Assembly: GCA_937924685.1 (NCBI GenBank)
Contig: CALEVN010000027.1
Location: forward strand, 60,205-124,204
Direction: 5' to 3'
From: an uncultured Candidatus Altimarinota bacterium
GTDB lineage: Bacteria > Patescibacteriota > Gracilibacteria > BD1-5 > JAGOOR01
DNA length: 64,000 nucleotides
Shown in pieces: positions 1-28,353 of the stretch. The notes under the pieces are model-generated. The model searched no databases. It was not told where the DNA came from and saw only the letters and a list, made by a program, of their open reading frames with translations. The position numbers and the translations under genes were made by a program. The number at the start of each line of letters is the position of its first letter. The stretch's first letter is position 1.

Positions 1-721
1 TCCCCATCTCTGTTTTTGTGAGCCATGTTCGGAATTGTTTTTTTCGGGCTTCGATTTCTGTAGCTGATTTTCCTGCTCACTGTAATTTTTCTTCTATTCC
101 TTTCCAGCCAGATTGAAATTTTTCTTCTATATTTCTGAGACTTACTTCAGCATCTGGGTGAAGATTAGGTAATCGTCTTGATATGAAATTCTCAACCGGA
201 CTCTCTATATACTCTTGCATTATTTGAAGAGCTACGAGATAGGCGAGGGTCTTCTTTCCAGAGATTTCATGTATTACTCTTCCGATATCTTCTGTGGTTC
301 TTGCAAATTCCATGATACTTCCGATGAGACTTTCCCACTTGTCTTTATCTTTTTCTACATTTTTTATATCTCCATGCGCTCGTCATTTGAGGTGGAGATA
401 TTGGATTTTGAGATTTAAGAAGATTTTTTCTAGACTATCTATTTCTCATTCTGTTTTTTTCTTTGTCACGTCATCAAGATCGTCTGGAGAAATAGATCAG
501 AGCGCAGACCTCAATTCTTTTATATCCAGGGACATAAGGAGCTCAAAATGTCTCTGAAATTTTGAAATTTCATTCTCATCGCGTTCTTCACCTACTACTG
601 ATAATACCTCGCGAAAAACAATACGATTTTTTTCGTTTTTATTTTGTTCTATACTATCGTTTGGCTTTTCTTTTTCAGCCAATTCATTTATTCCTCATTT
701 TCATTTCTTTAGTTCAGCCAT
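1..721 (-). CDS. hypothetical protein, 5' portion (continues past the left edge); last visible gene of the ORFan cluster
   Basis: ATG at 721..719, 3 nt after the TAA of the upstream gene. Track fragments 497..682 and 77..313 share this frame. The only in-frame stops down to nt 2 are TGA (near 701, 695, 497, 446, 383, 77). Lys/Glu-rich; no motif recognised. Confidence 0.55.
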
Positions 722-724
722 AAA

Positions 725-2893
725 TTATTTTTTTCATTTCTTCTTTCTTTTTATGTCTACATCTGGTCGTATATGTTCATCGATATTCTCTCTTATTGAA
801 TGAAGATGCTCAATGATTAGATTCATATCACTTCTGGCGTCAAAACTGCTTCGCATTTCATCTAATCGAGCTCTTACTGGATCACTAGAGTTAATTCTCT
901 CACTTATTTGATCCATTTGTGACTGTATTCGTTCCACAGTTCTACTTATTTCTTCTGCTGTTTCTGGTTTTGATAATTGTTCAGTTGTCAAATCTCAGAC
1001 TTTTTTTTGGAGTCATCTTATTTCATCTTCTGTCTTGCCAATCCTCTCTGTCACATCTGATTTTTTTAGATATTGTAATTCTTTTTTTAACGCTTCGATT
1101 TCTTCCATTAAATCTTTGCTTTCTTCAGGCGTCCCCATTTTCTGCTTTAATTCTTCTATTCGCTGTTCTTGTTCTTCTATTTTTTTTGAGGCTTTTGATT
1201 GTATTCTTGAATTTAGCCAACCAGAACTACCAGGAATTACTATATTTAAAAATTTTAAGTATTTTCTATATTTTCCTGGTTCAAAATTTCTATTAATACT
1301 GGAATGTATTGAATACCCCTGAGTTAACATCTCTACTATTTTTACAAGAAGACCAACATACAATACCCATCTCCACTTACTTTCTAATAAAGTGTTTATT
1401 TTGGATTTTCATTTATCCCATAACTCACTCATCTCTTCGTAGGCAATAGCTGCACTTCTATCTGTTAAGCTAATTTCTTTTAAATTTGCGAGTATATTTC
1501 ATGTTTCTTCTATAGCTTTGTTTTCTATTTTTGCTTTTATTGTTCCAGAATCTGGTTCAAAATTGTGAGTTGCAAAAAATTGTTCAATGTATATCAATAG
1601 AGCAAATTCAGATATTTTAGTGTCCATTTTTTCATCTCATGCCTCATTCTGCATAACAGATTTAAGCTTTAATATATCTTCAGTAGTTGCATGAGATTTC
1701 CATATCTCTCAGAATTTTTTTTCTAAGGTTTCATCATTTAAAACAGCGTGTAAATTAACTCAAAAAATAACACCATTTTTCGTATCTATATTTTTTTGAT
1801 CTAGTATTGTTTCGATGAGTTTTTTTTCAGCTGGAGTTTCACCAGGAAGTATAGGTCTGACATCGTGGGCAGTCGATAACCAAGCATCATTAAGTAGGTA
1901 TTTTATAACCTTATCTGTATTGATTGTTTTTCTTTCTTCTTCACTTATTTTGAGAAAATCTAGAGTTGAGCTTATGAGATCTTTTGTTGTCCCAGTCATC
2001 ATTTCTTTCCCTTCGGCTCATAATTTTTCTATATCTTCTCACTCGGACTTATCTTTTTTTCATAGCCATCACATAAGTTTGTCTCACCATCATGAACTAT
2101 TTCAGGCGGATTTTGCAATTCTTTTTGCTATATCTCCAGATTTTTTCATTTTGGTTGTTATTAGTGTGCCCAATAGTTCTGAAAAGGGTAATTCCATGAA
2201 ATACCTATTTCTCTCTTCTGGAGACTTTCAAAGAGCATTTTCCATGAGTGGTAATAATGGATTCTCTGCTTCTTCTGAGAGTCGAACTATTTTTTCTAAA
2301 TCATTTCGAGCTATTCGTTCTTTTTGAGTTGTTAATATCATTATTAACATTACACATGCTGCTAAATTATATCTACTATTTTCGGAATCATTGCTTGTAT
2401 CTTGTCTCTCTGGCAGTATCAATTTTTGTAGTGCTTTTCATTTTTCTAAATCATTTCATCCAGATAATCCGTAAACTTGTCCTATATTATATTTTTGGAT
2501 ATTGAGTTGATTTATCAGCTTTGCGAAATGTGAATTGAGAGTTTTGAGTTGAATCTCATTTCATTCAAAAAATTCTTTATTCATCTGATTTTTCTCGAGA
2601 GCATGATACAGTAAAAGTGGCTTTACCTCAGATTCAAGAAGGGCAGTATTTTCTACATTGTCTGCCAAATCTTCTAATGCTTTTCTGATATCAATATTTT
2701 GAGTATTAATTTTTTCTTTATATTTTTGATAAATTCTAAAAAATCCCTCCCTGTCAGAGGCAGTCATTTTTGCTGTATTGATTTTCCCAATTAATATTGA
2801 TAAAAAATCTTTTTCTCTAGGATCAATTTCTTTTAGATTAATCAATTCTGTAGTTACACTTTTTACTGCATTACTTTCAGCATTTCTGGACAT
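725..2893 (-). CDS. hypothetical 722-aa Lys/Glu-rich, partly coiled-coil protein (ORFan cluster)
   Basis: Track fragments 2561..2893, 2228..2422, 1760..2002, 1013..1363 and 734..991 lie in one frame and each ends in TGA. Codon-by-codon translation of the gaps finds no TAA/TAG until TAA 725..727. One hydrophobic stretch (VLYVGLLVKIVEML). No family recognised. Confidence 0.65.
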
Positions 2894-2897
2894 AGAT

Positions 2898-4907
2898 TTA
2901 ATTAAAAGTTTTTGACCCCCACTCTATAAGAGGTATGATTTTGTTCATTTCTTCTTGATCTTCGAGAGTGATAGACCCTATTCTAATCTTATTCACATCT
3001 AAATTGAACTCGTTCCCATTAACAATTTGTTCTAATTCTTTCTTTGTGTCTATAAAGTCTTTTTCGCCCGCCTGAAGATTTTCAAGTATTTCTCGTGCCC
3101 ATTTGTAGGATCGAGATCTATTATTTTTATCTATAAATATATTATCTTGTTCATCTATTTTTGGATGAGTTGTATCTGCTGGTCTTCTCTCAGAATTCAG
3201 GAGAAGAGAAAGTTTCCTGATACATATCTCACCCAATGCTCTTGCGATAAGAGGTGATAATACTTCCTTGTGTTTCGTTTTGTCGAAACCATTTGATGTG
3301 ATAATTCTTTCTATCTCTCATTGAATAGCTCCAACTTGAATACCTTTTTTAATAAACTCTTTCATCTTTGTGTCGATGGGTAAAAGAGCGTCATAGAGGT
3401 TGTCTATCTTATCATTTGTGGCATCTAATTGTGTCGGCTTTCTGGCTGCTATACTTTTTTCTGTTACAAGCATTTTTTGCATTGTTTCTGATAACTCCGT
3501 GTATCATTTTACCTTATTTGGATCTGTGATATCTATAGGAGGTATATCTGTGAGTCTTTTTGTCTTTAATTTATCGAGACTTACGAGAGCGTCTTTTGGT
3601 CATTTTTTCTCTAAATCTCCTAGTATAGGATTAAATTGAGCATCAAGTGAAGATGGTATTTTTGCTCGGAGAGCTTGAACTTTATCATTTCTGTAAGACA
3701 AAACTTCTGGACTTACTGATGGACGGTTTGATGGATTATTTGGAGGTGTATTATTTGGAGCATGGGGTGCTTGTGGAGCTGTATTGTTCGATGGTTTCGG
3801 CATGAGAACGCCTATTATTCCACCTCGAATCATATCTTTGGCTTTGTTGCCTACTTTTAGTATATCTTCTCCCATAGCCTTTCCTGTCCTCTTCATATCA
3901 AAACCATTTTGTACATAACGAGTTCCTGCCCAGCCTATTCCAGCGAGAAGGCCTAATCCAACAAGCGCATCAGTGACGGCTCGGAATGCACGAGATGGTG
4001 CTGTTAGAGCATCAAAAAATCCGCCAATTATTCCCCGTTTTTTTTCTGGATTTGCATGAGTTTCTGGGTGTTCTGGGTGAGCTTCTGGATGAGCAGTGCC
4101 TCCTCCGGCTGGTGCCGGATGGGGATGTTTGTGCTCTTTGTGCTCTCCTTTAAAGAGTCCGAAGAGTGATTTTATACCAATGGCCAATGCTGCAACTCCA
4201 ACGACCGACTGAATAGGATGGTCGACGAGTTGATAGGTAATAGCATTGTATCCAAAGGTATCCTGAATAAAGTTTCCACTTGAAAGTCATGAATTGTTCT
4301 TACTTTGTGATGGTGTATTGACTTTGATTGAGAGGTCTCTGAGTCATTTCTGAGTTCTTGCTGAGAGGCTCTGAGGCGTATTTGCGAGCTGTTGTTGAGC
4401 TTGTTGGAGTTGATGTTCGACTCCATCGATGATCGGTTTCGCCTTTTCAGGAGTATCGAGGCCGAGATGCTTCAAGAACTTCTTTTCGTCTTGACCAGCA
4501 GGATATGTCCAGTTTGCAGGGGTGTCTTTGAGCACTACTACATCTTTGTTCCCCATTTTTTCTATCTTGAGGTGTATTCATTGGATTTTTAATACTTCGA
4601 GGATCACTACCCGAGCCTGATTCATGATGGCTTTCATGCCGAGAGCATCGAGCTGTAATTCTGGTGCTTTTTCTATTGTTTTTATTGCATCGAGAAACTC
4701 CGTACATGCAACAGGGCCTCTCTGTATATCATCCAAGAGGAAATCTGACATTTCTTTTGTGGCACTTTCCATCTTCAGACGCTCTTTCACTGTTTCAGGT
4801 TTATCAGCATTTGCTTCTTGTTTGAGAGCTTGTAAGTCCGCTTTTACATCACGTCATCCGGTGACTTTTTTTTCGAATATTTTTTCGTATTTTGGAGGTG
4901 TAGGCAT
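2898..4907 (-). CDS. hypothetical 669-aa membrane-associated protein with a His/Pro-rich loop (ORFan cluster)
   Basis: Fragments 4578..4790, 4344..4556, 3600..4187 and 2898..3236 share one frame and are joined only through TGA. ATG 4907, TAA 2898. Gly-rich hydrophobic segments (VVGVAALAIGIKSLFGLF and LVGLGLLAGIGWAG) bracket KGEHKEHKHPHPAPAGGGTAHPEAHPEHPETHANPEKK. A Pro/Asn-rich linker follows. Confidence 0.65.
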
Positions 4908-4916
4908 AAAAGAAAA

Positions 4917-7217
4917 TTAACGTGTGTAATAAGCTCCGTCCATTACCATCTCAGATGATTGGTATACGTTTGATGAGCCAACTTTTGAGAGAATACAGTA
5001 ACAAGCGTGTCACTCAGGAGGAGGATTTTTGGTATCGACTACTCTGATGAGGTATCGACCATTTTCTCTGATAAACTTATACTCTAAATCACCAGCACTG
5101 AGATCCCAAGAGGGGAGTATGATTTTTTCGTTCCATCCCGGAAGGGTATATTCAAAAGTATTTTTTCCTGATGTGTATGGAGGTATTCCTGTGAGCACGC
5201 TAAGGGACTTATTCTCAAAATCTTTCGGTATGTCTTCGACTTTTCTATCTTTATCAACGAATTTCATTTTCATTTCTTGGAGTTTTGGTCCAAATATATT
5301 AAACCTCTTTTCGTCTGGTATTTTATTGATATTTTTACCATAAAATTTTGCAAGATATGCCTGGAGAGTTTCGTGTGATCCTGGCTCAATCAATGCTTCT
5401 GGAAATACACTTTCTTTATTTGCTTGATTTGATTCGAGAGCACGAGCACGAGCGATATCTTTTCGTCGATAGTACACTTCTCGGTAGATAGCTTTATATG
5501 ATGCGAGTACTCCACCTGTGATTTTTTCATTATTTCCGATAGTGAGCGTACTGATGCTATCAATAGCATTTGGATGGTATTCAAAGTTTTGGAAAAAGTC
5601 TTTCGCATCCACTCTCTCTCAGAACGGTTTCTCATTGCTGTCTTTCTCTGGTTTGAGATGTGTCCAGAGTGAGAGATATGAAGGAAATACGTCTTTCTGG
5701 AAATCAGGAACGGTTTTTTCAAACCCTCTCCAGGCTCTATTTTTATCATTTTCTGATTGATTTGGGTCGACACGTTCGAGGACAGAATTTTCTATAGCAT
5801 TACCCATGACATTACTACCGATGCTCATAGCTGCGAGAGCACCTATGACACCGACAGTTCGCTTGAACCATCCGAGATGTACATCGTGATGTTCTCACTT
5901 TTTGTCATCACCGCCATGATCATGATCGCCGAGGATTTTTTCTGGTAGTTTCCATGCTAGATATCCGAGAGCAATGATGGCGAGTACAGCTCCAGCACCA
6001 CCAAACCTCTTACCGGCTTCTCCGATTGGATGTCGTACGAAATCTGCCCATTCTTTTGTAGAAGAGGGAAGTTTTCATTTTACTCTTTCTTTATCATATT
6101 TTGTGACTGAATTGATCGTGAGAGCGAGCGTATCTGCTATACCAGCTTGTGCGAATTGTTTTGCGTCGTCTTGTGCTTTTCAAATTGTGCCCACATCGAC
6201 TGGGTTTTGCTTTCCCTGTGCGAGGTATGAGAGTATGAGTGATTTATTTTGTGGAGCTATTCCTCGGTGAGAGAGGACATTTTGAGCATTGAATACTTTT
6301 TGGCCCGTCATATTGTCCGTTACTCCGGGCGTAAAGAGCGACTGAGCTATATCGATCTGGCTGGTTGGAGATTGGCTTACCGATGTATATGCCATAAATC
6401 CACGAAGTGTCTCACTTGAGATCATGTGATCAGCTCACGATGCATTGATTCCACCCCAGTTTTTCTTGAGATTTTCGCCGGCTGATGGCTCAAAGTCGAC
6501 TTTTACTTTTCCATTTGCATCGATATAGGGGATGACTCCGTGTCGTAGGAGTTCTCCGATGAGTATATAGTTCAACATGCGTTCGACGAAATCTGCCTCA
6601 GGCGCGACCTCCGGAGGAAGCAGGTTGAGGACTTCTTTGATTTCTTTGCGAGAAAGGGCGAAACTAGCAGGACTATCTATCATGCTCGATTTTTTTCTTT
6701 CCATATCTTCGATTTCTTCTATGACTTTTTTCTCTTTTTCGCCATCGACTATTTTTTCTGCGAGAAGTTTTTTGAGACCAGAGAGGTTTTGAGTTGTTTG
6801 TTCGACTACTTTTTCACCTGCTACTGCTTTTTTTGTTTCTTTGACAGCTTCTTTTTTCTTTTTTGTTTTTTCTGGATTTTGAGATTGTTCGATCATGTAG
6901 AATGCGACAGAACTATTTGTAACTCCATCATCGAGTTCATCATTTGATACCTTTAATAGTGTTGGATTATTCTTCTTGAGATATGTGTATACGTCTTCGT
7001 AGAATGGATGTCCAGTAGGGAAGCCTAGTCCTTCACCAAATGGTGTCTCACGATGGTTATCGAGAGGTGGTTGGAGTTTGTAGTTCTTCTTCATGAGCTT
7101 ATTGACAGCATCAACGAAGTTTTGCTTCAGTGTATCGTCGAGAATCGCAAAGTTATGGGCTGATTCTTGTCGATTGAACCCTTGGTTTTCTCATTCATTT
7201 GGGCGGCGAGGAGACAT
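4917..7217 (-). CDS. hypothetical ~766-aa membrane-associated protein with a His/Asp loop (ORFan cluster)
   Basis: Fragments 6435..7094, 6180..6425, 5619..5828 and 5010..5612 share one frame and all end in TGA. TAA at 4917. With UGA as sense the frame is open up to 7310, and the first ATG is 7217 (TATAAT 9 nt upstream). ATG 7094 is the alternative start. Helices GGAGAVLAIIALGYLAW and VGVIGALAAMSIGSNVMG flank DHDHGGDDKKGEHHDVH. Confidence 0.6.
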
Positions 7218-7340
7218 AGAGAGGATATTATACTTAGTAATTCTCTCATACTTTTTTATGAAAAGCAAAAAAACGTCCTGTATTTCTCGAATGAGTTCTA
7301 ATTTCCTACCCTAGACTTATCATTATTTATGTATTTATAT

Positions 7341-7372
7341 AAAAAACTCATCAGAAATTGATGAGTTTTTTG
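7341..7372 (-). terminator. rho-independent terminator (bidirectional hairpin) ending the upstream half of the ORFan cluster
   Basis: Perfect 8-bp stem actcatca / tgatgagt with a 5-nt loop, flanked by A6 on one side and T6 on the other. It sits about 16 nt downstream of the TAA at 7388. A 170-290 nt non-coding gap follows. Confidence 0.7.
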
Positions 7373-7387
7373 ATTTTTTAACGGTGA

Positions 7388-9340
7388 TTATGGGTGTGGA
7401 GTTCCGTGAGATCCAGTTCCATGTGGGGCTGGTGTTGCGTGGCCTGAAGGGGCAGGGATTGTGACAGGGGCAGGTGAAGTATCACCGAGCTTTCTCTTTA
7501 TAGTTGCGAGAGCTGTCAATGCATCTTGTACGAGATTGAGATGTTCTACATGAGCGAGTTCGTCCTGCATTTTTTTCAATTCTTTTTCTGCTTTTTTTGG
7601 ATCATCCATCATGGTTGCATTTGTAATTTTTGGGTCTATACCGTCTTTCAGATTCTTGATGAGATCATCGAGCCCGTGGACAAAATGCTCTAATTCGTGT
7701 CGTGCATCCTCAATTGTTCGAACAGAGGCTTGATAGTCCTGAATTTTTACTGATCATGCTCTCTTCGCGGCTGCGATTTGTGGTAATCTCGCACTGAGCG
7801 CTGCTATTTCTGCTGTTATTCCATCTATTTCTTGTTTGTTATGTTCTATTTCTACTTCTTTTGCCGCTTTTGCACTTACTGTTGGATTGCTTCAGCCCTG
7901 TTGAGCTTGCTCTATTTTTCGAGCATTAATTTTTACCTCTTTTTCTTTTGCAGCAATTTCTCCTGGTGTTCAAACTCTTCTTAAGAGCCATCATTTTCTT
8001 TGTTTGAGGTCTTCCAGCTCTTTTGCAAGACTTGCCTCTTCTGCTTCGAGAGTGAGGAGCTCGGTACTTTTTGTGGCTAATTCAGTAGTCGTTAGCGCAC
8101 CCAATTCACTAGTGAGTCTTATTTTTTCTGTTCTGAGGGTCGCTAACTCAGTTTTTTTAGCGGCTAATTCAGTAGTCACGTGACGCTCTTCTGAAACTGC
8201 ATAGTTATAGTCGTCATCGAGAGTTCAGAGGAGTCTATCCCTTTCTTCATCTATTTTTTTTATATCTACCAATATATGATCTGCTGCTTTTTTTATTGCT
8301 TCTACTGACTTTAATGTCTGTTCGAGTTTTGGTTTATTTTTTTTATTTTTGAGTTTTGTTGGGATCTTTTTTACATCTCATGCCCATCGTGTTCCTGGTG
8401 TTTGAAAAGCATTTAGAAGTGCAAAAATAAGGAGTATGCTGAGCATTTCCAATCATTTCTTTTCCAATCCCCATACAGTCCCATCCGTGTCATCCTGTGC
8501 CTCATCGAGTAATCTCGCTATGGTATGATAGAGATCTGCTTTGCTCTGGAAAGTCCCAAGTCATGGAGATGTCTGTGGAAATGGTTTGTTTGGATCAATG
8601 CCAAATGATTGTAGAAATCTCTGTTCGAGAATAGGATCACGCCCCATGTGCTTTATCACACTCGGGAGATCTTTGATGCTGGCTATTACCTTGTCAGCAT
8701 CTTCCGCAGCAAAATTTGTTTTAAACCGATCATTGATATTTTCGAGCCATCCTTCTGTGAGCCAGAGTTTTCGAATAAGAGTTGTAGGGGCATTGCCACG
8801 TTTTACACAGGCAGCAAAATTATCGACTGATTCTGTGAGTTCACGTTCGGCATCAGCGAAGGCACGAGCCTCGAGGTCGTATATGCTGGCTCTGACTTTC
8901 TTGAGTGCTTCATCTTGAGAAGTTGATCAATTATCTCCTCGTATATCAGCTCCGAGATTGCCTGAGAGGCTTTCGTGAAGTTCTTCGGCAGCCGTGATGT
9001 CGTCGCCAGCCACACTGATTCCTCCACCGATTCATCCGACTTGCCGAATGAGAGCGCCCAGCTCGCCTGGAGAATAGTCTTGTAATGCCTTCAAATCTGC
9101 TACGAGATTTGCTGTTGCTCTTCTAAATTCATTATTTTGTCAGTTTGTTGCCCAAGAATGAATCTTATGAACCAGTCCACTTCCTCCAAGTGTTGAAGCA
9201 AGCAGGATAATGGTGACTTTTTTATTGAATTTTTCTCGTAATTTCTGGAGCATGCTTTTGTGTTCATGATTTGATGCATCATGTGATTCTGATGGTGCAG
9301 CTGGATTTGCTGGATGTGGGTGGTGGTGTGAGTCAGACAT
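7388..9340 (-). CDS. hypothetical 650-aa His-rich coiled-coil membrane protein (ORFan cluster)
   Basis: Fragments 9140..9340, 7991..8179 and 7388..7612 share one frame. I translated 9142 down to 7612 codon by codon and found only TGA interruptions. TAA at 7388. The N-terminus is MSDSHHHPHPANPAAPSESHDASNHEHK. Hydrophobic segments are VTIILLASTLGG and MLSILLIFALLNAF. There is a long coiled coil with TTELA.K.TEL.TL repeats. The C-terminus is PAPSGHATPAPHGTGSHGTPHP. Confidence 0.7.
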
Positions 9341-9350
9341 AGCACAATAA

Positions 9351-10115
9351 TTAGAAAGTAGGCGATAGTGTCACGGTATTCTTCTCTAGTGTATGATACG
9401 TGTGCATCAATTGCATACCGAGGTTACCGATATGTATCGTCGAGAGGGCGAGTATATGAGAGTGTTCTTTGGCAAATGATGTCGCTATTCATCTCAGTCA
9501 TGTGATCGTATCAGGTGGTGTTGTTGGATTGAGAGTTGAAGTCAGTGTTTGGAGATATGACTCCTCTCTCTGTATTGTTGATGCGAGTGTGTGTATTTGT
9601 CTTTGTGTTACCTCTAGACCTGCGTGTTGCATTTCTAGTACATGAGCTTTCTGATTTTGGGCTGCGAGTGTTTTAGCGAGCGTCTCGTATGATTTTTTTA
9701 AAGAAGCTTTTTTTCCTGGAAAACTCCAAAACTTTTTGTGTGCTATTTCACCATGAAGTTTCTGCATATTTTCCTGTGTTGTGCTTCTCTCTCTTTCTAG
9801 AGCAATTTGTGCTGATTTTATCAGAAGAAGACGATCCTTTATAGTTTTTTCTATATATTCACGGACACTCTTTAGGTACTCGAGATGTGCTTTTGTTTCT
9901 TCTACCTTGTCGTTTGCACGTCAGATATTTTTGCGAGCATGTTCTTTGATGGCTTTGCTGAGTCTCACAAATGGGGAACTCAATTTTTGTCCTAAAATAT
10001 CAACTAATTGGCCAGCACGACGACGTAAATTTTGACCTATTTCTCCATAAGACTTAGAAGAATTATGTTCTTCTGGAAGACTATTTAAAGATGTGGGTAG
10101 AGCAGCAGTCGTCAT
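9351..10115 (-). CDS. hypothetical 254-aa coiled-coil protein (ORFan cluster)
   Basis: Fragments 9921..10115 and 9498..9767 are in frame and joined through TGA. Read-through of TGA 9498 continues to TAA 9351, leaving a 10-nt gap before the next ATG (9340). That gap matches the tight spacing elsewhere in the cluster. The last ~50 aa are less certain. Confidence 0.55.
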
Positions 10116-10127
10116 TGTTTTATAACA

Positions 10128-11618
10128 TTATGATATTTTTGAAAGGGGAGAAGTGTTTGAACTTGCGATTCATTTCCAATAATCGTCTGTTGTTCCATTG
10201 AGTTTTCCGAGTAGTTCTTCTTGTTTGAGAATATCAGAAACAACTTTTTCGTATCCATCTTTTGTCTTTGCTGTGAATATAGATGCGCCTGTTTTTCCTG
10301 GTTCTCGGAGATAGCCTATGAGGGATTCTTTGAGTAGTTTTTTTGCTTCCTCTGTAATATTTGTTTTACTATCGATCGCTTTTTCTACTCTTGCGTAGAC
10401 TTTATCAAAAGCGAGAGGGAAGTAGACCTTGAGTGTATCCTGGAGACCAACAAGAGTGTATTCATGTAATTTTGTAGGTTCGAAATCTGCTTTTTTGTCT
10501 TTCTCGTCTAATTTTGTTTCGCCTATCTTGGTAGTTATTGCTGTTATTGATTTTTCTGCGACTGTTTTGAGGATTTTTCCAGCTTCTTCTGGTTTCTTGT
10601 CCCCAGCTTTGTCATAATTGTCTTTTTGTGCTAGATATTCTGTTTTGAGCTTTTCTGCTACGCTAGATTCTTTTGTTCCAAGGACTGTTTCAGATGAAGA
10701 TTTGATGCTATTAAATGCGGTGATATCTTCTGGTTTTGCTTCGATTTTTTCAGTTTTACCTCCGTCGAGTGCTATCTCAATTGTATTATTGATTGTTGGA
10801 GCTTCTGGTGTTGTCGGAGTTTCTACGGGTGGAGTGACTACTGGCTTCTCTTCTACGCTAAAGTTAAAGATATCGGCAATATTTTTTGGATCAGAGAGTG
10901 TTGCATAGTGATCTCTGGCTGCATCAAATTTAGTCACGAGGTCTGCAGGGGGTGTCCGACGACTCATACCGCCCATATATTCGAGAAAATCAATTCATTT
11001 ATCTGCAGGTATTTTGAGCTTTGCGAGGTGTTCGACAGTATATTGGCCTATCTTATCACGTTGTTTTCCAGATTCTGGAACATCAACTCCGAGGGATTTG
11101 ACGACGTCTGCCATTTTTTTCCCATCGATATCTTCTCATTCAAATAGATCCTCTTCATTGAAACTGTATCCATCACGCCAGTATGATTCAATAATATCTT
11201 TTAAACTTGGGAAAATTGTTGCTAACATTTTTTGCATGTTCCATTTTTTTGATCATGTTTTTGCCATGTCATTTCCTTCTGTTCCTGTTGGTGTTGTTCA
11301 TCCATTTTCTCCTTCTGTTGGTGTTGGAGGCGTAGCTACAGGGGTTTTGCTTTTTTCAGCAGCACTTGTGACAGCCTCATCTACTTCGCTATCTTCGAGT
11401 TTTCCATCTTTTTTTTCACCATTTGTATTATCTTCAGCCTGAATTTTTAATTCTTCAAGGAGGTGTTTTTTGAAATCACCAATTCTCTCTTCCGTGTAAT
11501 CTGTTATAGCATCGCTTGTTTTTTGCTTCAGCGCTTCTTTTTGCGCAGGAGTCATCTGTACTTCTTTCTCAGCTTCCTTGACGATAGCATCGACATGTTC
11601 TGGGTTGGTGAGTGGCAT
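10128..11618 (-). CDS. hypothetical 496-aa acidic, Pro/Thr-linker protein (ORFan cluster)
   Basis: Fragments 11298..11618 and 10170..10976 are in frame. The gap 11297..10977 was hand-translated and contains only TGA interruptions. TAA at 10128. No motif recognised. Confidence 0.65.
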
Positions 11619-11638
11619 AAAAGAGTGGTTACTGTACT

Positions 11639-11667
11639 AGGATACCAGACTCTTTTTTATATTGCAA
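11639..11667 (-). promoter_or_regulatory. putative sigma70-type promoter for 10128..11618
   Basis: On the minus strand: TTGCAA (11667..11662), a 17-nt spacer, then TATCCT (11644..11639). It shares the extended motif AAATATTTGCA with the promoters at 14818 and 61965. Confidence 0.4.
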
Positions 11668-11735
11668 ATATTTAACTTATTATTTTTAGGTACTCAAAAA
11701 ATCTCCTTATCTACACTTTTTTCAATAGAAATACC

Positions 11736-13718
11736 CTATGTTGATGCAATGGATACTGTCTCTTTTTTGTCGACTATACTGACATTTCTGATACCATTAT
11801 TTTCAAAAAAAGTACTCAAAAAAGCGATAGATATATTATCCATTCTTATGCATCCAGCAGAGTCTTTCGTGCCGAGATTTTTCTCTTTATTTGTCCCGTG
11901 AAAATAGATGTTTTGATCCATGTTCATGGCTAATATTGCTGTCGTCATCTGCGCACTTCCATCCCAATCTATCATACCATCAGGGCTTTGTTTGTGATAT
12001 GCCTGTCCAAATTTTCTAAATGGTATAGTGCGAGGATCTTCTGATTTTGTTTGCAATTGAAATTCTCATGCAGGTGTTCTCGATCATTTGCCGCTCGATA
12101 TATCAAAAGCGATTTTTGGAACACCCGATGGATCAAGTAAGTATGCTTTCTGTCAGTCTTCATTGATATTTACGACTATTTGATAGTCCGCTTGAGATCT
12201 CTGAGCTCAGTATGTACTGTAAAATAATTGTGCTTCTTTGCTATCTACTACATGCATACGAGGTTTGCTTGCGAGGAGGAGTTCTTTTTCTTTTCCAGAA
12301 ACTTGTGAGAGTATATTTTGGAGTATCAGAGATGTTTCTTGTATTTTTGTATCATCACTTTTTTCTAGTTCTCAGAAAAATGTAGATAAATTTTCAGGAA
12401 TATTTTTGACTCAGGGGGTTACCTCGGCGCTCATCAATCATTTTTTTCTAAAACCATTTTTCTTTTGCAAATTTATGAGATCTCAAAAATTAATATTATT
12501 CTCTCGAATTCTATATGCTGGCACGTTATTTGGTACGTGCCTTGTTGTTTGTTCATTGTGGTTAAAACCTCTGTCTGATACATCTCCTATGATGGTGAAG
12601 TTTGCTTTTCCACTTTCTTTTGCGAGGATTTTTTTACCGAAAAACAGTATCATTCTCTGCTCTCTGAAATCTTCAGCCATTTTCTGAAGTGCTGGCTTTA
12701 CCTCATTCCAATCGCAGTATATGTCGATAGAATTACATGCTCTTATTATCATGATATCATCCTTTCAAGGGAGTTTTATTTCTTTTCCGAGAGCATCGCG
12801 GGCATTCTCGAGTTGTTTTCTGAGAGATTTTAGACCATCACCACGTACCACCTGTATATCATTTCTTCCGAGTAAATCTCCTCCGATTTTTTGGTCACTT
12901 TTTCTTGCTTTGAGTAGTTCATCTACTGACTCAGGAAGATCGAGCGCTATGGTATGATTTCTCTTCAAAGCTTTTGCCATTTCTACTGATGTGATCGCAG
13001 GGTAGTCTCTCCGGATGTGTTGTTCTTGGTCATGATAATCGCCTACACCAGGTCAGATGTCTATAAAATAAGAATCTATGTTTGATATACCGAGATCAGT
13101 GAGAAACTGTATATGGTCATTGAGCCGCCCGGGGAATGTGCGATTGAGGAGGTCCATATTCTGTTCATGTCTGCGAAGATCTCTCTTATATTCTCAGACA
13201 GATGTCTTTATTTCTTCTTCATCGGATGATGATAGAACCGGCTCATCTTTGATTTTTTCCACAAATGTTGGCGTTTTGTCGATCTGGTTTGCTAGCGCTG
13301 TAATTATAGCACGTACTTCTCAGAGATCATACATGGTATATTTTTTTGTTTCGTCAAAAATTCCCCTGAGTTCTTGTTTGATATCATTTTTTTCTTTTTC
13401 ATGAAATGATTTTCAATTTACGAGACGATCGAAGCGTCATTGACATGTACTGACTTTTCATAGAAGTTCCTCTTTTTTTCTTTTATTTTCTTCTGTATGG
13501 TTTTTGAGTTCTTTCCAAGTACTTATGATGTCTGCATACAGTTCTCCTGCATTATCTGGTGAGGATTTTTGTAATTCATTTTTGAGGTCGAGAAGTTCCT
13601 GCCTTGTCTTCTCTTTTTCTTCTTCTGATATACCGTCTTTCTTCCTCTCCTGTATGGTTTGTTTTATCGTGGTGAGTTTTTTTTGTCATTCGGTTATGTT
13701 TTCTGCAGGATTCGACAT
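11736..13718 (-). CDS. 660-aa protein: long coiled-coil N-terminal region fused to a C-terminal L,D-transpeptidase (YkuD) catalytic domain
   Basis: Fragments 12765..12980, 12483..12752 and 11736..12056 share one frame with ATG 13718. Gaps were hand-translated and contain only TGA interruptions. TAG at 11736. The C-terminus carries HGTNKEKNLGTKDSAGCIRMDN, the YkuD His...Gly-Cys-(I/V)-Arg active-site signature. Confidence 0.75.
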
Positions 13719-13728
13719 GAAAATAATT

Positions 13729-14763
13729 TTATTTTTTGAGTTCTTTATCTACATCATCTGCTGTTGCTTTTGGTTTTTCTCAGCCTGCCCCTGGCGGTAC
13801 TCTGAAGAGTTTGCCTGTGTATGGACATTTTACTTCCATACCAGCTGGCAAGCCTGTTACATCGACTAACTGATGTTTCGCAGCATAGGGGCTATTGACG
13901 AAACCAGGGCGTCCCGGAATAGGAACACCATAAGGTAATTCTTCAGGCTTCTTCTCACCTCCTTCAGGCTTCTTCTCACCTCCTTCAGGCTTCTTCTCAC
14001 CTCCTTCAGGCTTTTTCTCACCTCCTTCAGGCTTTTTCTCACCTCCTTCAGGCTTTTTCTCACCTATAAAATCATTCGGTAAAATAATTGGTTTGTTGGT
14101 ATAGGGGCAGATTATTTTATCTCCGGGTTTAAGACCACGAACATCGACCAACCTCGGTGGGTTGGTATGTGGACTTCTAATATATCATGGTAAACCCGCT
14201 ACAACTGTACCATAGAGTACAGATTCATCACCTTTTTCTCCTTTATCACCAGCATCACCTTTTTTGCTAGATGGGCGCATACCAGAATCATCTCTATTTT
14301 CTTTCTTTTTTGGTTTTCATTTCATTTCTTTTGGTTCTTTTGAAAATGATGCTGGATCTACTTCTACGAAGTCTTCTGCGACCCATCCTGTGCGACTTTC
14401 GTCGATTTTTCCACCCGCTTTATAGACCTGTACTTTGACGAAGTTTTTCTTTTCTGCTTGTCCTTCTACGGTAACTCCAGTTTTTCGGCCTATGATTCTG
14501 ACCTCTTCACCTTTATAGGCTGTACCTATACGGTTGCCATGATCATCACGAATTCGGAGTCCGTATCATTTATCAAAAGTTTTTATTTTTCCAATGATGG
14601 TTTGTTTCTCGTAGTTTCCATTGAGTTTTTTGTGCAAATCGCCTAAAGCGTCTTGGGTATTTTTTTTGAGATCAACACGTTCTTGAGTGCTGTCTGGAAG
14701 TTGATCTTTGTAATCTGTTTGTGGTTTGAATTTGCCACCAACAGGGAAATTTTCTCAAGGCAT
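13729..14763 (-). CDS. 344-aa protein with an SH3b-like domain, an EKKPEGG tandem repeat and a duplicated CPYT motif (first gene of the cluster)
   Basis: ATG 14763 is in frame with track ORF 13780..14151. TAA at 13729. The SH3b-like stretch is [27 protein letters not shown]...VKVQV...GWVAEDFV. The duplicated motif is SP(H/Y)..(4-5 aa)..LVDV.GL..G....CPYT.K....P. Translation of 14763..14521 was checked by hand. Confidence 0.7.
13941..14063 (-). repeat. 21-bp tandem repeat, about 6 copies, encoding (EKKPEGG)n
   Basis: The unit cttcaggcttcttctcacctc occurs 3 times, followed by 3 copies of the variant cttcaggctttttctcacctc (AAG vs AAA Lys codon). It is in frame inside CDS 13729..14763. Confidence 0.9.
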
Positions 14764-14794
14764 AAAAGTATATTAAAAATAATTATACCTTTTT

Positions 14795-14823
14795 AGTCTA
14801 CTTTACTTTTTTGTGCTTTGCAA
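14795..14823 (-). promoter_or_regulatory. putative promoter of the ORFan cluster
   Basis: On the minus strand: TTGCAA (14823..14818), a 17-nt spacer, then TAGACT (14800..14795). It is preceded by AAATATT. A TATAAT also lies at 14787..14782. It sits in the divergent region shared with rel. Confidence 0.4.
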
Positions 14824-14846
14824 ATATTTGAGCCATTTCCTCTCCA

Positions 14847-14874
14847 TTGAAAGTCGACTGTTTTCTCCTATACT
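14847..14874 (+). promoter_or_regulatory. putative rel promoter giving a leaderless or near-leaderless mRNA
   Basis: TTGAAA (14847..14852), a 16-nt spacer, TATACT (14869..14874), then 6 nt (cttttt) and ATG 14881. No Shine-Dalgarno-like sequence. Confidence 0.5.
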
Positions 14875-14880
14875 CTTTTT

Positions 14881-17016
14881 ATGCCACAGCGACTCGATAT
14901 AGATGCTTTAATAAAAGAAATAGAAGAATTGTATGGGAGATACGGTTCTGAGGATTTTTCGATAGCAAAAAAGGCCTATGAATATGCTAAAAATGCCCAC
15001 AAAAATCATAATAGAAAATCAGGAGAACCCTACATAGTTCATCCTATATCGGCTGCTCGAGAATTGATGACTATACAGCCTGATATGGTGACCCTTGTCT
15101 CTACGATTATCCATGATACAGTTTCTGATGGTACGGGCACATTTGATGAAATTGAAGAGCTATTTTGACTAGAAGTACGTCGTATCGTCGAAGCTCTTGA
15201 TAAGATCGGTTTCATAAAATACAGAGGTAATCAATCCACGATTGATCGACTCCAGAGGACACTCATTGCTATGGCCCAGGATGTGCGAAGTATATTTGTG
15301 AAATTTGCAGATAGGATCGATAATCTACGTACTCTTCAGTATCACAAAGACCCTGAAGTGGCCAAAAGAATTGCTGACGAATCTCTCTCTATTTATGCTC
15401 CTATTGCGGCACGTCTCGGTCTCTATGGTTTTAAGGAGATAATGGAAACCCTCTCGCTCCGAGAACTCGATCTCGATGGATATCTCCATGTCACAGGAGA
15501 GCTCGCTCATTATACACTTGAGCAAGATAAATTTCTCACACAATCTGTTCATAAGATACGTAATCTACTTCCAGAAAAATATAGAGATACTGTCACCTAT
15601 AGAGTCAAAAAACCATATTCGATTTATCGAAAACTCAAGCAAAGTGATGTCAAAAGCATTCGTGACATTTATGACGTGTTTGCTATTCGTATTATCGTCG
15701 ATGATGTGAGTGATTGTTATGCTGTTTTGGGCTTGATACATGGTCATTTTACCCCTATTTCCAAACGCTTCAAAGACTTCATAGCTGTCCCAAAATCTAA
15801 CTGATATCAGAGTCTTCATACGACAGTTCTCTGATTTGAGTGATACCAGCAGCCAGTCGAAATACAAATCAGGACTCGTGAAATGGATCAAGATGCCGAA
15901 GAGGGGACAGCGGCTCACATCCTCTACAAGATCCATGGTGATACTATGCAAAAAGAGCAAAAATATGAAGACTTACTTCAGATGACCATGGATACTCTTC
16001 TTGGACAAGAAGAGTCTGCCTTTGGGAAAAAAATAAAACTTCCTACTATTTTTGTTTTTTCTCCTCGTGGTGATGTGTTTGAGCTTCCACAAAAATCGAC
16101 TCCTATTGATTTTGCTTATGCAGTACACTCGGATGTTGGATATCATTCTGTGTGAGCCCGTATTAATGGCAAGATACGAACCCTCGATACTGTTCTGAAA
16201 GATGGAGATATCGTTGAAATAGTGACGAGCCCCCAAGCACATCCCGCTCAACAATGGCTGGATTTCGTTGTTTCTTCCAAGGCAAAATCTCAAATTGGTG
16301 TGGAAGTGAAGCGTCTCTCTGGTGATAGGGGGAAGATAGTAGAAAAAGGAAAAAAACTTCTCTTTGAGACATTTAAATGAGCAGGAATTATCCTCGATGA
16401 TCATCTCACAAATTTTTTGCAATATTATGGAAGTAGTTTGGATGCTAAAAAAATGGAAGAGTTATTTTACAGTATAGGTCAGGGCATTAGAAAACCGAGC
16501 AGTTTTCTCCCCAGAAAACAACCAACGAAAAAAAATGTAGCCAAATCTCACGCAGAGAGCCCTATTCGTATCATGATAGGGGGTGAACGACAAATACCTC
16601 ATCAGATTGCTCAATGCTGTTCGCCCCACTTTCCTGATGAGATAGTGGCTGTACTGAGGACTTGAGGTAAATGTATGATTCATGATGTTCACTGCCGTAG
16701 TCTTGAGCGTGTCAATAATCGCCGGCTTCTTTCGGCTTATTGGCAAACAAGTGAAAAAGGCAAAGTGGTTTCATTTACCCTCCTTTTTCATGATGTTCCA
16801 TGACTTCTCGCACGAGTGACGAAAGTATTCTATGAGATGGGAGTCAATATAGTTGATCTCGACCTCAAGGCTCAAGATGATGGAACTTGCCGCATACAGG
16901 CCTCAATTGAGATACACAATGACCCATCATTTCTTGATCGATTATTCGAGAGAATACGCCTCTATATACCAGAATTTCTCATGGCTGAGAATGATTTTTT
17001 TGACAAGAGAAAATAA
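14881..17016 (+). CDS. rel: bifunctional (p)ppGpp synthetase/hydrolase, RelA/SpoT homologue (HD, synthetase, TGS and ACT domains)
   Basis: Fragments 14881, 15271, 15883, 16417 and 16816 are all in frame 1. Conserved motifs present: SGEPYIVHP, IIHDTV, YRVKKPYSIYRK, PKSN-G-YQSLHTTV, VEIQIRTREM, TGS V-G-ARINGK, ACT DVP-G-LLARV. The hyphenated G residues are TGA codons. TAA at 17014. Confidence 0.93.
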
Positions 17017-17577: not shown

Positions 17578-18312
17578 ATGCAGATACTTGCGATTATTTT
17601 CTCTGTAGCATTTGGTTTTTTTCTCTGGATGTATCTCCTGACCTACTTTATGTACCGTGGAGCGAGTCGTGATTTTTTTCAGAAAGTTCGTATTGGTCTC
17701 ATACGGGGTATGCTTGTAGCAGGCGTTTTTATCCTCTTTGATAGCGTTGATAGTCTTCAGGGGTATATCCAGACTGATTGGGTTGTTTTTCCGCTTCTTT
17801 TCTTTGCACTTTCTCTACCATTTTCTTGGAGACGTATTGGGTTTTTTGCGACGTTTCCAGTGCTGCTCGGTCTATGTGTCCTTTCTCTTCATTACTTCAT
17901 GACACCATCATCGTTTCTCTGGTCTCCTTTTCACGAAGAAATAGGGAAATGGTATCAGAGTACAACAGCACTCTATCCTGCTCTCGTGAGCCCATTTGTG
18001 AGCCTCGGTTTTGCGCTTGTAGAAAATATTCGTTATTTTAGTGGAGATACACACGTTGCTGAGATATTGGGTCGCAGCCTGTTTTCTCTTCCGCTTCATC
18101 TCTTTGTTTCTCTCTTTGCTTTTTGGTGCTTCTTTTCTTTTCGTTCTCGAGTGCTCTGAGGTATCGTCGGTGTTATGTCAGCTATTCTCATCCATATGCT
18201 CTATAACTGGTCGCTCAGTACCTCACTCATTATCACCCTCATTATTATCATGATGGGCTACGCTTTCTATGGTTGGAGTGTAGAAAACGGTTGGTGGAAG
18301 AGGAAAATTTAA
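17578..18312 (+). CDS. polytopic membrane protein, possibly a PrsW-like intramembrane protease
   Basis: Track ORF 17578..18159 reads through TGA 18157 to TAA 18310. At least 6 hydrophobic helices. ALVENIRYF, PLHLFVSL and IHMLYNW resemble the E..K / H...(D/N) motifs of PrsW-type proteases. This is a weak, by-eye call. Confidence 0.45.
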
Positions 18313-19841
18313 TTCTTTTTGAGCTCGTCGAGTTGTGCCTGGATTTTATCTACCTGAGCGCTTGTTGTTTTGTCATCCTTGAGCCAACGATTGTAGAGGT
18401 CGATAGCAATTGCTTCACGAGTGGCGTCATTCATGACTCCAGCGCCAGCAGCAGTCACACTATCGATTACTTTGAGTTCGAGCTGATATTTTGCGAGAGC
18501 GGCTTTTGTGATAGGGCCAAATATCGCTGTATCTTTATTGCTCATGTACCCTACTTGCTTGAGGATTTTTTGTAATATACGGATACCAGCATTCACTTGA
18601 CCGAGTTTCACAGTTGGTACTTTTTTCAGAGAATCAGCATATTCTTGTTTTTTCTTATTGAGAGCTTCATCACGCTTTTGTTTTGCAGCATCGAGATCAC
18701 GTTCGAGAGCTACAATACTGTCGAGTTTTCCGAGGTATGTATTGTATGTCTCTGTGAGTGTTGTTTCTGTAACTGGACCATAGTAACCAGCACCTGGATC
18801 ATCTGCACCTGTGACTATCTTTTTCTCAAGTTGAAATGCATATATAGCATCGACGAGGCGTTTATTGAAAATCCCATCTATGTCATATTTGAAATAACCG
18901 AGATCTTTGAGTTTTTGTTGGAGCGCTCGAGTATCGTCACTATTGAGGTTACTGGTAGTCGCTGCAGCACTACTAGAAGATGAGCTCGTTGTGTCGGTTG
19001 CAGTAGAATTAACAATGTTCGTATTGTCTGTCTTGTTGAGTGTTCCCGACAGGAGTGCCTTGAGCATGGCACGTGTTTTTGGGCCATAAGTTCCTGCACC
19101 ATCATCCGTCTTTACTTGTACGATGCCGTTTGTTTTTTGGAATTGAAATATAGCCTCTACGAAATCCTCATCAAATATACCATCAATAGGGCCACTATAA
19201 GCATTGAGTCGAGTGAGGAGGTTTTGTACTATTTTTACGTCTGCCTGAGGGCTTACGGCATTTATAGGCATAGTAAATGGATCAAATACTCTCGTTGTTG
19301 ATCCAGAGGCAAGAGGTACTGTTTCATTGTGAGGATTTGTACAATCACTCGGAACATTATCAAAATTTGATGTATCGGGGATAGAAGTATCGTTATTGAA
19401 ATCTATGTAGACTGTCTGAACTCAGAAGTTAATAGCTCTACAGAGACCAGCCTGTCATTTCCCCATATAGATATCGAGACGAGGAAGCTTTGATCCGCTT
19501 GTGATAGCGCCTCCACGATCGAGAACAGTTCCGTGAAACTCAAAATTAATTGGAGTTCCCTTGATAGTGAGTGTTTGTTTTGTGTGAACCCGTGTATTAA
19601 ATGCTATATCACGTGGTGCTGCGACAACTCCAATACGGACTGGTTGTCCAGAGGCTGTATGTGTCCCTTCACCGTTCATTTTTATTTCATCAGCATAGGT
19701 ATCATGTAGATAGAAATCCTGTCATTCTACTGGTGAATAATACGCTGACACGAGATAAAAAGCTCCATCGGCATGTGTGGGAAGTGACCAGAGGGGAACT
19801 GTGAGACTCGCAAGAGTCAAGAGGCTAAAAATGCGACGCAT
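18309..19841 (-). CDS. secreted cell-wall protein: signal peptide, 3D (MltA-like) domain, then four PG_binding_1 repeats
   Basis: ATG 19841. Fragments 19455..19679 and 18309..19271 are in frame, and the gap was hand-translated. Signal peptide: MRRIFSLLTLASLTVPLWSLPTHA. 3D domain: SAYYSPVE-G-QD...GVVAAPRD...LDRGGAI...LDIYMG. Four repeats fit the pattern LQ..L..LGY....IDGIF....V.AI..FQ. TAA at 18309. Confidence 0.8.
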
Positions 19842-19940: not shown

Positions 19941-19968
19941 TTGCAAAGAGGTATTCTCTTCCTACACT
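19941..19968 (+). promoter_or_regulatory. putative promoter, near-leaderless, for the yraN-like gene
   Basis: TTGCAA (19941..46), 16-nt spacer, TACACT (19963..68), 6 nt, then ATG 19975. Confidence 0.5.
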
Positions 19969-19974
19969 ATTTTT

Positions 19975-20337
19975 ATGGTATGATTTAATTATCGTTCTCG
20001 GGGAGATGTCTGAGAAGACCTCGCTGTGTCATATTTAGAGACACATTGATATACCATTATTGAACGAAATGCTACCTTTCTCGGAGGAGAACTCGATATC
20101 ATATGTACTCGGGATGGATTTTGGAGATTTGTGGAAGTGAAATACCGTGAAAGCACTATTTTTGGTTATCCGGAAGATTCTATGACTTCTAAAAAAATCA
20201 AAACCCTCCTCCGTGCTATAGAGATGTATTGTCTCAAGAAAAATATAGATTATGCTCGGACAAGACTCGATTTTCTCTGAATTTTACGATTACCAGAAGA
20301 GAAATATGAGTACAGATTAATAGAGGATGTGAATTAA
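19975..20337 (+). CDS. yraN: YraN-family (UPF0102) predicted endonuclease
   Basis: 120 aa, missed entirely by the standard-code track because it has 4 TGAs. G-EDLAVSYLETH-G-YTIIERN....GELDIICT......FVEVKYR fits the UPF0102 pattern G..GE..A..YL...G..I..RN.....GE.D.I.......VEVK.R. TAA at 20335. Confidence 0.8.
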
Positions 20338-20400
20338 TTGAATTTTTCTTGCACAACTCTAAAATGCTCTAACATATTGTATACCTTTAATCGTTATCTT

Positions 20401-28350: not shown

Positions 28351-28353
28351 ATC

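Follow-up and report, generated by a model that had tools for sequence, protein, structure and literature searches.

A conserved block of nine genes in TGA-recoded Gracilibacteria-type bacteria, with a wall enzyme whose cargo is exchanged between lineages

Enzymes that open the cell wall are known from Gram-positive conjugation and type IV secretion systems (T4SS), with CwlT and the PrgK-type hydrolases, and from cyanobacterial septal junctions, with AmiC, the SH3-domain protein SjcF1 and SepJ/FraCD. A YkuD-fold enzyme is also known as a delivered effector, namely Tlde1 of the Salmonella type VI secretion system (T6SS) (PMC9638812). Papers on Gracilibacteria and Absconditabacteria describe type IV pili, hydrolases of a generic kind and surface proteins of giant size, and nothing that resembles the gene block presented here (PMC8080830, PMC11452946). 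We examined a stretch of 64,000 nucleotides (referred to as the window; contig CALEVN010000027.1, positions 60,205 to 124,204) from an uncultured Candidatus Altimarinota bacterium (Gracilibacteria, BD1-5), which begins with a block of nine minus-strand genes, denoted here by g1 to g9 from left to right and read from g9 towards g1. The original prediction, made from the sequence alone, had singled them out as a candidate undescribed envelope or host-interaction system. We regard it as nearly certain that this gene system is genuine, conserved and undescribed. With a probability of roughly 0.4, we propose that it is a lineage-restricted envelope module of two operons, in which a membrane scaffold positions or exports Sec-independent wall enzymes, in CPR-type bacteria (CPR, candidate phyla radiation) that read TGA as Gly (code 25). 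Two caveats apply, namely that its function is inferred and that CPR genomes often contain hypothetical genes in clusters.

The likeness to Tlde1 lies in g8, which has a YkuD domain with the His...Cys motif, has no Sec signal and is encoded within a multi-gene cluster of membrane proteins. The block differs in that neither T6SS nor other secretion genes were found in it and no immunity gene is adjacent, and in that g8 is a multi-domain protein whose YkuD domain has Amidase_2 or NlpC/P60 as its partner elsewhere among the lineages. With polymorphic toxins (LXG toxins of the type VIIb secretion system (T7SSb), Rhs, and contact-dependent inhibition (CDI)) g8 shares a near-constant N-terminal module, 97.5% identical in nucleotides between two sister loci, followed by a replaced C-terminus, and one of these loci (L001) has an extra tandem gene bearing the module. 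On the other hand, this module matches no trafficking domain, and there is no EssC/FtsK-type ATPase, WXG100 partner or immunity gene. The likeness to conjugation systems and septal junctions is conceptual: multi-domain peptidoglycan cleavers and an SH3-type binder act together with a set of coiled-coil membrane proteins of few transmembrane (TM) helices, so that the wall is opened for a conduit between cells. However, no sequence or fold relation was detected, VirB4/VirD4 ATPases are missing from the block, and g8 lacks a TM anchor. The adjacent Gly/Ala-rich helices of g3 and g4, which are separated by a loop that is short or of low complexity and lie between large soluble parts of proteins lacking a signal peptide, recall several hairpin proteins (chlamydial Inc, the translocators of type III secretion systems (T3SS), colicin-type pore formers and class II holins), but there is no homology, g3 and g4 are far larger than holins, no T3SS is present, and purifying selection suggests resident machinery. 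As for the Mycoplasma terminal organelle (HMW1/2/3, P65), the common ground is an operon for coiled-coil proteins and acidic Pro-rich ones in a recoded bacterium that is poor in wall or attached to a host, whereas the match to TIGR04523 is noise (19.7 bits against 270) and the present organism has peptidoglycan and S-layer (SLH) genes. In each of the first four comparisons at least one defining feature was looked for and found to be absent; what stands is that the C-terminus of g8 belongs to its fold family, and no more.

When translated with table 11, the block shows no long genes, only short open reading frames (ORFs) of 80–270 aa. When TGA was taken as a sense codon, the long ORFs of the window added up to 120 kb instead of 32 kb, and positions 2..14772 were tiled by nine ORFs of the minus strand. 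We assigned TGA to Gly (table 25) because of two observations. In the RelA/SpoT protein encoded beside the block (14881..17016, plus strand; E 1.6e-105 to PDB 6yxa), TGA is found at Gly columns (e.g. ...GAKVNG) and never at Trp; and when six window genes were aligned with their L001 orthologs, TGA faced a Gly codon at 21 of 43 substituted positions and a Trp codon at none. TGA accounts for 73 of the 321 Gly codons of the block, and in-frame TGA was present in every locus of the block that was compared. With table 25 and trimming to the first ATG, the nine genes of the original prediction were reproduced exactly, with their coordinates, sizes and gaps, and tile 2..14763 of the minus strand: g1 (2..721, the N-terminal 240 aa, its C-terminus being cut by the window edge), g2 (725..2893, 722 aa), g3 (2898..4907, 669 aa), g4 (4917..7217, 766 aa), g5 (7388..9340, 650 aa), g6 (9351..10115, 254 aa), g7 (10128..11618, 496 aa), g8 (11736..13718, 660 aa) and g9 (13729..14763, 344 aa). 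At full length, the g1 orthologs have 1106 aa (locus L002) and 1078 aa (L005); thus, the block reaches ~2.6 kb past position 1. No Shine-Dalgarno sequence was recognisable in the 25 nt before any of the nine starts, the leaders being AT-rich (...ttt ATG; 721..14790). The window has a single tRNA gene, tRNA-Arg(TCG) at 49577..49652, and no suppressor-type tRNA-Gly(UCA) gene.

Gene order in sister genomes, proposed earlier as a check, proved to be conserved across about six TGA-recoded lineages. L002 (CAYVZT010000001.1) has the full order g9-g8-g7-g6-g5-g4-g3-g2-g1, divergent from relA, with the layout and spacing seen in the window, in which a divergent spacer of 117 nt (14764..14880) separates g9 from relA/spoT. 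The order is partially kept in the other loci: g9-(extra gene)-g8-g7-g6-g5-g4-g3 in L001, g5-g4-g3 in L003, g4-g3 in L004, g4-g3-g2-g1 in L005, and YkuD protein-g7-g5-(g3 paralog)-g4-g3 in L006-8. The identity of g4 in L003, L004, L005 and L006-8 is only 30–42%, and the sub-orders are still kept; at this identity the synonymous substitution rate (dS) is saturated while the order persists. The block families are mutually unrelated, and therefore the block is not a paralog array; paralogy among its members was considered and rejected, with the single exception of g3 and the ORF preceding g4 in L005 and L006.

Between the window and L002, RelA is 87% identical with a ratio of non-synonymous to synonymous rates (dN/dS) of 0.05, whereas the block members are 30–79% identical with dN/dS of 0.12–0.42. 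All are under purifying selection, which marks these ORFs as genuine genes rather than untranslated sequence. The most constrained members are g4, g3 and g5 (0.12 for g4; 0.12–0.14 for g3 and g4) and the least constrained are g1, g2 and g8 (0.29 for g1, at 30% aa identity; 0.42 for g8, the maximum of the block). Synonymous codon differences exceeded non-synonymous ones in 4 of the 6 window/L001 pairs. Orthologs of g3 were found in L001, L002, L003, L004, L005 and L006, those of g2 in L002 (37–39% identity) and L005 (E 2e-99), and that of g7 in L006 (E 1e-65), while g6 was not detected beyond L001 and L002, which are close relatives. The g5 ortholog of L006 was detected by single sequence at E 1.7e-8; the value of 7e-155 obtained with the g5 family hidden Markov model (HMM) is a match by construction, as the L006 protein was part of the HMM. 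In L005 (4413..6845), the g4 ortholog lies in three overlapping ORFs (223, 472 and 150 aa), possibly through frameshift pseudogenisation or an assembly error. L002, a GTDB representative whose genes, including relA, have 3–16 in-frame TGA each, is labelled 'uncultured Candidatus Peribacteria bacterium' in NCBI; either this label is imprecise or recoding of the code-25 type extends to that lineage.

The intergenic gaps from g1 to g9 are 3, 4, 9, 170, 10, 12, 117 and 10 nt. The widest one, between g5 and g4 (7218..7387, minus strand), holds an intrinsic terminator after g5 (7341..7372; hairpin AAAAAACTCATCA-ATTTC-TGATGAGTTTTTT followed by a T-run) and then a conserved leader with TATAAT just upstream of the g4 ATG. 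In L001/L002 and in L006 a terminator hairpin is found at the same position with different stem sequences. Two transcription units, g9-g5 and g4-g1, split by this position-conserved terminator, are thus supported, in agreement with the two or three units suggested earlier, and co-transcription within them is concluded from the gaps of 3–12 nt together with the terminator. A promoter-like motif had also been claimed for the AT-rich 117-nt gap between g8 and g7 (11619..11735, minus strand), and there no promoter consensus match was found on the coding (minus) strand; the gap may hold an internal promoter. Since the counts of promoter and terminator consensus over the block were not above those of shuffled controls, we gave credit solely to the positionally conserved hairpin.

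The C-terminal YkuD domain of g8, already recognised in the original prediction, scored well above the Pfam cut-off (PF03734; residues 512–628, nt 11835..12185; 47.2 bits against 23.4, E 4.6e-12), with an intact catalytic motif (FHGT at 606–609 and SAGCIRM at 620–626, with His607 and Cys623); the proteins in the g8 slot of L002 and L006 are also above this cut-off. The ~500 aa in front of it, described earlier as coiled coil, are not all of that kind (9% by a heptad heuristic); judged from the sequence, they consist rather of an N-terminal module (N-module) and then a stretch of ~280 aa that matches no family. The N-module is helical (residues ~1–80, nt 13479..13718), is strongly conserved in all g8 orthologs (...DDAGEIYADIIETWKELK...) and sits inside a region of 150 residues that can be aligned across them. 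The same N-module is carried by the extra gene of L001 (297 aa). At its N-terminus g8 has a charged helix without any hydrophobic segment, and a Sec signal, a lipobox and a TM anchor are all missing. Therefore, g8 is not a classical periplasmic L,D-transpeptidase, while its assignment to the YkuD fold family is unaffected.

The part of g8 behind the N-module is exchanged between lineages. In DNA, L001 and L002 share 95.2% identity between g7 and g3 and 97.5% within the N-module, whereas the remaining ~2 kb of g8, for the C-terminal ~600 residues, have no nucleotide similarity. In the window and in L001 the cargo is a ~280-aa domain that matches no family, followed by YkuD; in L002 it is Amidase_2 with YkuD, and in L006 YkuD with NlpC/P60, the N-terminus of the latter being lost at the contig end. 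Polymorphic effector loci show this pattern of a constant N-module in front of displaced wall-cleaving cargo. Residues 1–150 have no Pfam or NCBIfam match, a known trafficking family (LXG, PAAR, MIX etc.) was not recognised in them, and searches for N-module homologs gave zero in the word-index search, in the JGI metagenomes and in IMG/VR. No immunity gene stands beside g8; directly after it in all loci comes g7, 95% conserved between L001 and L002. The profile of ElsL (NF040925) reached g8 with 20.2 bits against a cut-off of 270, over the catalytic motif only. The middle domain (residues ~190–470, nt 12309..13151) reads FIDIGPGVG...SVEMA...VVRGDG...IMIIRACNSI, and its motif-I-like FIDIGPGVG led us to consider a class I S-adenosylmethionine (SAM) methyltransferase. 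This is no more than a tentative visual lead, with Pfam empty even at E 10 and a phmmer search of PDB also empty.

For g9, the first gene of the block, an SH3b-like domain had been suggested. A match to SH3_3 (PF08239) was found at residues 76–134 (nt 14362..14538; E 7.3e-5), though at 23.3 bits it stays under the Pfam cut-off of 27. The protein has no N-terminal signal or anchor. Behind the SH3b-like domain we identified two modules of ~42 aa each, A (residues 192–233, nt 14065..14190) and B (residues 284–325, nt 13789..13914), both on the minus strand, with a near-perfect tandem repeat in the linker (13941..14065, minus strand; 21 nt x 6, 99% matches) that encodes GEKKPEG. The g9 ortholog of L002 has EKPGKD-type repeats instead, broken by an assembly gap (a run of N), and the linker is thus a length-variable repeat. 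In the AlphaFold2 (AF2) model, the modules are predicted as small four-stranded units (predicted local distance difference test (pLDDT) 87–95); neither has a Pfam family, a PDB fold match or a match found in the literature. The order A-then-B also occurs in hundreds of Verrucomicrobiales proteins of 160–330 aa with lipoprotein signal peptides (L009 154..1086), which implies an extracytoplasmic role for the modules. Module B is identical to one Verrucomicrobiales protein at 40/42 aa (~95%), while third-codon positions agree at 15/42 and GC is 0.51 against 0.68. Recent transfer of module B from Verrucomicrobia is ruled out by these randomised third-codon positions, and the likeness reflects extreme purifying selection. 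Such constraint with saturated synonymous sites points to a very strongly constrained ligand interaction.

No signal peptide was detected in any of the nine products. The most conserved member, g4, has helical N-terminal domains and a Gly/Ala-rich hydrophobic hairpin (residues 406–475, nt 5793..6002), with helices at 406–429 and 454–475 and a His-rich loop between them. Both helices are kept in every lineage, whereas the His-rich loop is an insertion confined to the sublineage of the window, L001 and L002, the loop being short and Lys-rich elsewhere. In g3, TM helices at 227–252 and 307–328 enclose a His-rich low-complexity loop at 253–306 (nt 3924..4229), which is low-complexity in all lineages and either His-rich or Gly/Ser-rich depending on the lineage; the N- and C-terminal domains are large and hydrophilic. 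The hairpins of g3 and g4 have small-xxx-small motifs and large soluble flanks. In g5, a His-rich N-terminus (1–28) is followed by TM1 (42–60), a domain of 235 aa (61–295), TM2 (296–317), a Lys-rich stretch, a long coiled coil (~330–600, ~270 residues) and a Pro/His-rich tail. Hydrophobic segments are present around residues 260–365 in the g1 orthologs of L002 and L005, and g2 has one weak hydrophobic segment (residues 507–527, nt 1313..1375), with coiled coil nearer its C-terminus (residues ~560–710). The other two proteins are soluble, g6 being coiled-coil-rich and g7 having acidic Pro/Thr-rich linkers with no family match.

According to the heptad heuristic, coiled coil makes up 35% of g6, 29% of g5 and 14% of g2, and at most 7% of each of g1, g3, g4 and g7. 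The earlier description of g1–g7 as seven Lys/Glu-rich coiled-coil proteins was thus overstated, as richness in coiled coil is confined to g5, g6 and part of g2. The theme of Gly-rich helices next to His-rich segments, which had been noted in three genes, was confirmed: g3 and g4 each have two such helices around a His-rich loop, and g5 has His-rich ends and two separated TM helices. The His-rich loop of g4 is not family-wide. Directly downstream of the g1 ortholog in L002 there is an ORF (19948..20715) with His-rich tandem repeats of the HGHHDA type, partly N-masked, followed by a TM-anchored TPR protein; the His-rich theme may run on beyond the block end, past the left window edge.

Across the nine products, Pfam gave YkuD in g8, the SH3_3 match below cut-off in g9 and no other match, and NCBIfam, PHROGs and PADLOC gave low-scoring coiled-coil matches only. 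For g1–g7, neither these four libraries nor searches of PDB by sequence and by profile nor Foldseek yielded a family or fold, so the seven products remain, as first noted, without a recognisable family; remote homology of most members to known families was looked for and not found. The orthologs from L002, L005 and L006 were equally without a family match, the g8 slot excepted. A word-index search of 5.8 billion proteins gave 1 homolog of g4. When 1.84 billion representatives were searched exhaustively with phmmer, 11 homologs came up, almost all of them fragments from block-bearing contigs already compared. In the JGI metagenomes nothing was found for g4 with back-translated patterns that were too specific, and JGI does hold the relatives L006-8. 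An exact look-up of a table-11 protein fragment returned no record. In PDB, no real match was obtained by sequence for full-length g1, for g2/g3/g5N/g7, for g9 or for the middle domain of g8, and the g4 profile gave no match either. For alignment and structure work, P0001 and database fragments, with W at TGA sites, were used as proxies. The AF2 model of the g4 family, with short helices and a beta-rich C-terminal domain, has a pLDDT of 61 (80–90 for residues ~130–340), and Foldseek found no significant match for it (best E 0.36 in PDB; best E 0.019 with probability 0.13 in BFVD).

The family scans (Pfam, NCBIfam, PHROGs and PADLOC) also bore out the initial impression that the block proteins carry no ATPase, secretin, integrase, terminase or capsid signature. 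Signatures of secretion systems (GspE/PilB, VirB4/VirD4, EssC, TssH) were absent from the nine proteins, from their L002, L005 and L006 orthologs and from the scanned window ORFs (about a dozen smaller ORFs and one ORF of 4118 aa were left out). A viral origin was not indicated by IMG/VR scans, phage tblastn or a BFVD fold search, none of which gave a match.

The flanks are ordinary chromosome, with relA, PrsW, transaldolase, transketolase, DnaE, PolA, UvrD and an FolC-like ligase; GC is slightly lower at the g1-g2 end of the block (0.33–0.34). Wall-remodelling genes are abundant in the window outside the block too. They include a signal-peptide protein with three PG_binding_1 domains (18309..19841, minus strand) and two tandem LysM-LysM-CHAP paralogs with N-terminal TM anchors (27364..29535, plus strand). 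These and an M23-SLH protein are the four other wall enzymes of the window, and all have signal peptides or anchors, unlike g8 and g9. The 4118-aa ORF (29601..41957, plus strand) has an N-terminal hydrophobic segment and 51 in-frame TGA, and in size it is like the giant surface proteins reported for Vampirococcus.

In the envelope module that we propose, the membrane-anchored g1–g5, which combine large hydrophilic domains with one or two helices of hydrophobic character, and the soluble g6 and g7 would form a membrane-associated scaffold. This scaffold would dock the wall-acting g8 and g9, encoded at the head of the block, and would probably export them independently of Sec. The ~80-residue N-module may be the part by which g8 attaches, its cargo being exchangeable (YkuD with the unnamed domain, with Amidase_2 or with NlpC/P60), and g9 would supply the binding modules, namely the SH3b-like domain and modules A and B. 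The result may be a local opening or remodelling of peptidoglycan at a contact site, either in the own wall or in that of a partner cell. The sequences show that the genes are real and keep their order, that they fall into two transcription units, which domains g8 contains and that its cargo is swapped, and that Sec signals are missing and membrane segments present. Indirect support for an envelope or contact function comes from three of these features: g8 and g9 lack the Sec signals of the four other wall enzymes of the window, near-identical strains differ in their g8 cargo, and the modules of g9 recur in Verrucomicrobial proteins bearing lipoprotein signals. A bolder form of this proposal, which we consider unlikely although worth stating, is a Sec-independent wall-breaching or contact machine of UGA-recoded CPR bacteria, in which g1–g5 would recognise the N-module as an adaptor and deploy g8 effectors on a host or prey, and which would be a new class of effector delivery.

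Several points weigh against the envelope module. A joint complex of the products, the exit of g8 and g9 from the cytoplasm and action on the wall of a host or prey are steps which we infer from co-encoding. No ATPase or known translocase was found in the block or among the scanned proteins of the window, and export would therefore be without a visible energy source. The variable cargo of g8 has no immunity-like companion gene. In most lineages the g4 loop is short and Lys-rich; this would make the loop cytoplasmic and put the large domains on the outer side, a topology that fits poorly with the lack of signal peptides. The YkuD, Amidase_2 and NlpC/P60 folds also occur in cytoplasmic enzymes of muropeptide recycling (AmpD, YkfC), to which the ElsL match of g8 is one weak pointer. 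Moreover, the missing fold match of g4 is weak negative evidence, given the moderate confidence of the model.

Another possibility, doubtful in our view, is that g1–g7 are an internal cytoskeletal or attachment scaffold, comparable in role with the terminal-organelle proteins of Mycoplasma, and that g8 and g9 are cytoplasmic, trimming imported or recycled peptidoglycan in the manner of AmpD, ElsL or YkfC for a bacterium unable to make its own building blocks. It would account for the missing signal peptides of g8 and g9, for g1–g5 being mostly hydrophilic and, without signals, probably cytoplasmic, and for the acidic Pro-rich linkers of g7 and the coiled coils of g5 and g6; all three cargo folds have cytoplasmic recycling members, and the ElsL profile does touch the YkuD catalytic motif. 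However, recycling enzymes are normally small, stable and single-domain, whereas the cargo of g8 was swapped at 95% strain identity and g8 has a dN/dS of 0.42. Modules A and B of g9 are found elsewhere in signal-bearing lipoproteins, no recycling family was matched at equivalog level (ElsL far below its cut-off), and the helix-rich NCBIfam match from Mycoplasma is noise. Somewhat less likely still is a polymorphic effector/translocator locus, with g8 as a wall toxin against hosts or competitors whose N-module serves for trafficking, g3 and g4 inserted into the target membrane, and the secretion machine encoded elsewhere. Its hallmark, a constant N-terminus with a displaced C-terminus, is seen in g8, YkuD-fold toxins exist (Tlde1 as T6SS effector; PMC9638812), hydrophobic hairpins with small-xxx-small motifs lie between large soluble domains, and the distal g1 and g2 evolve fast (30–39% identity against 87% for RelA). 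What speaks against such a locus is that g8 has no neighbouring immunity gene, that its N-module matches no known trafficking domain (Pfam; zero in the word-index search), that no secretion ATPase is nearby among the scanned proteins, and that g3 and g4 are the most conserved members (dN/dS 0.12–0.14), which suits machinery more than effectors.

We give about the same low weight to the explanation that the block is no functional unit, i.e. that unrelated, fast-evolving hypothetical genes have inherited their order in small, little-rearranged genomes. Interaction between the members is, after all, deduced, g6 was undetected outside the closest relatives, and CPR genomes frequently have such clusters of hypothetical genes (cf. 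PMC10849945). On the other hand, the order has persisted at 30–42% identity with dS saturated, the gaps of 3–12 nt and the terminator indicate co-transcription, and membrane and wall themes run throughout the block. As for a remnant of a prophage, an integrative and conjugative element (ICE) or a defence island, this was already disfavoured and is very improbable. The large ORFs without relatives, the endolysin-like domains without signals (Amidase_2, SH3b, NlpC/P60) and the slightly lower GC at the g1-g2 end might hint at it, but PHROGs and PADLOC gave coiled-coil noise only, the IMG/VR, phage tblastn and viral fold searches were without matches, there is no integrase, and in L002 the block occupies the same place beside relA, whose product is 87% identical in aa, with housekeeping flanks.

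How episymbionts and predators of the Gracilibacteria and Absconditabacteria type attach to other cells and breach walls is a question for which the block offers a concrete and bounded candidate. As a syntenic set of about 10 genes that is confined to recoded lineages and has a constant adaptor module, swappable wall-cleaving cargo and conserved hairpin membrane proteins, it makes the wall-breaching question testable. Should the block turn out to be internal scaffolding with enzymes of recycling, it would bring seven new protein families all the same.

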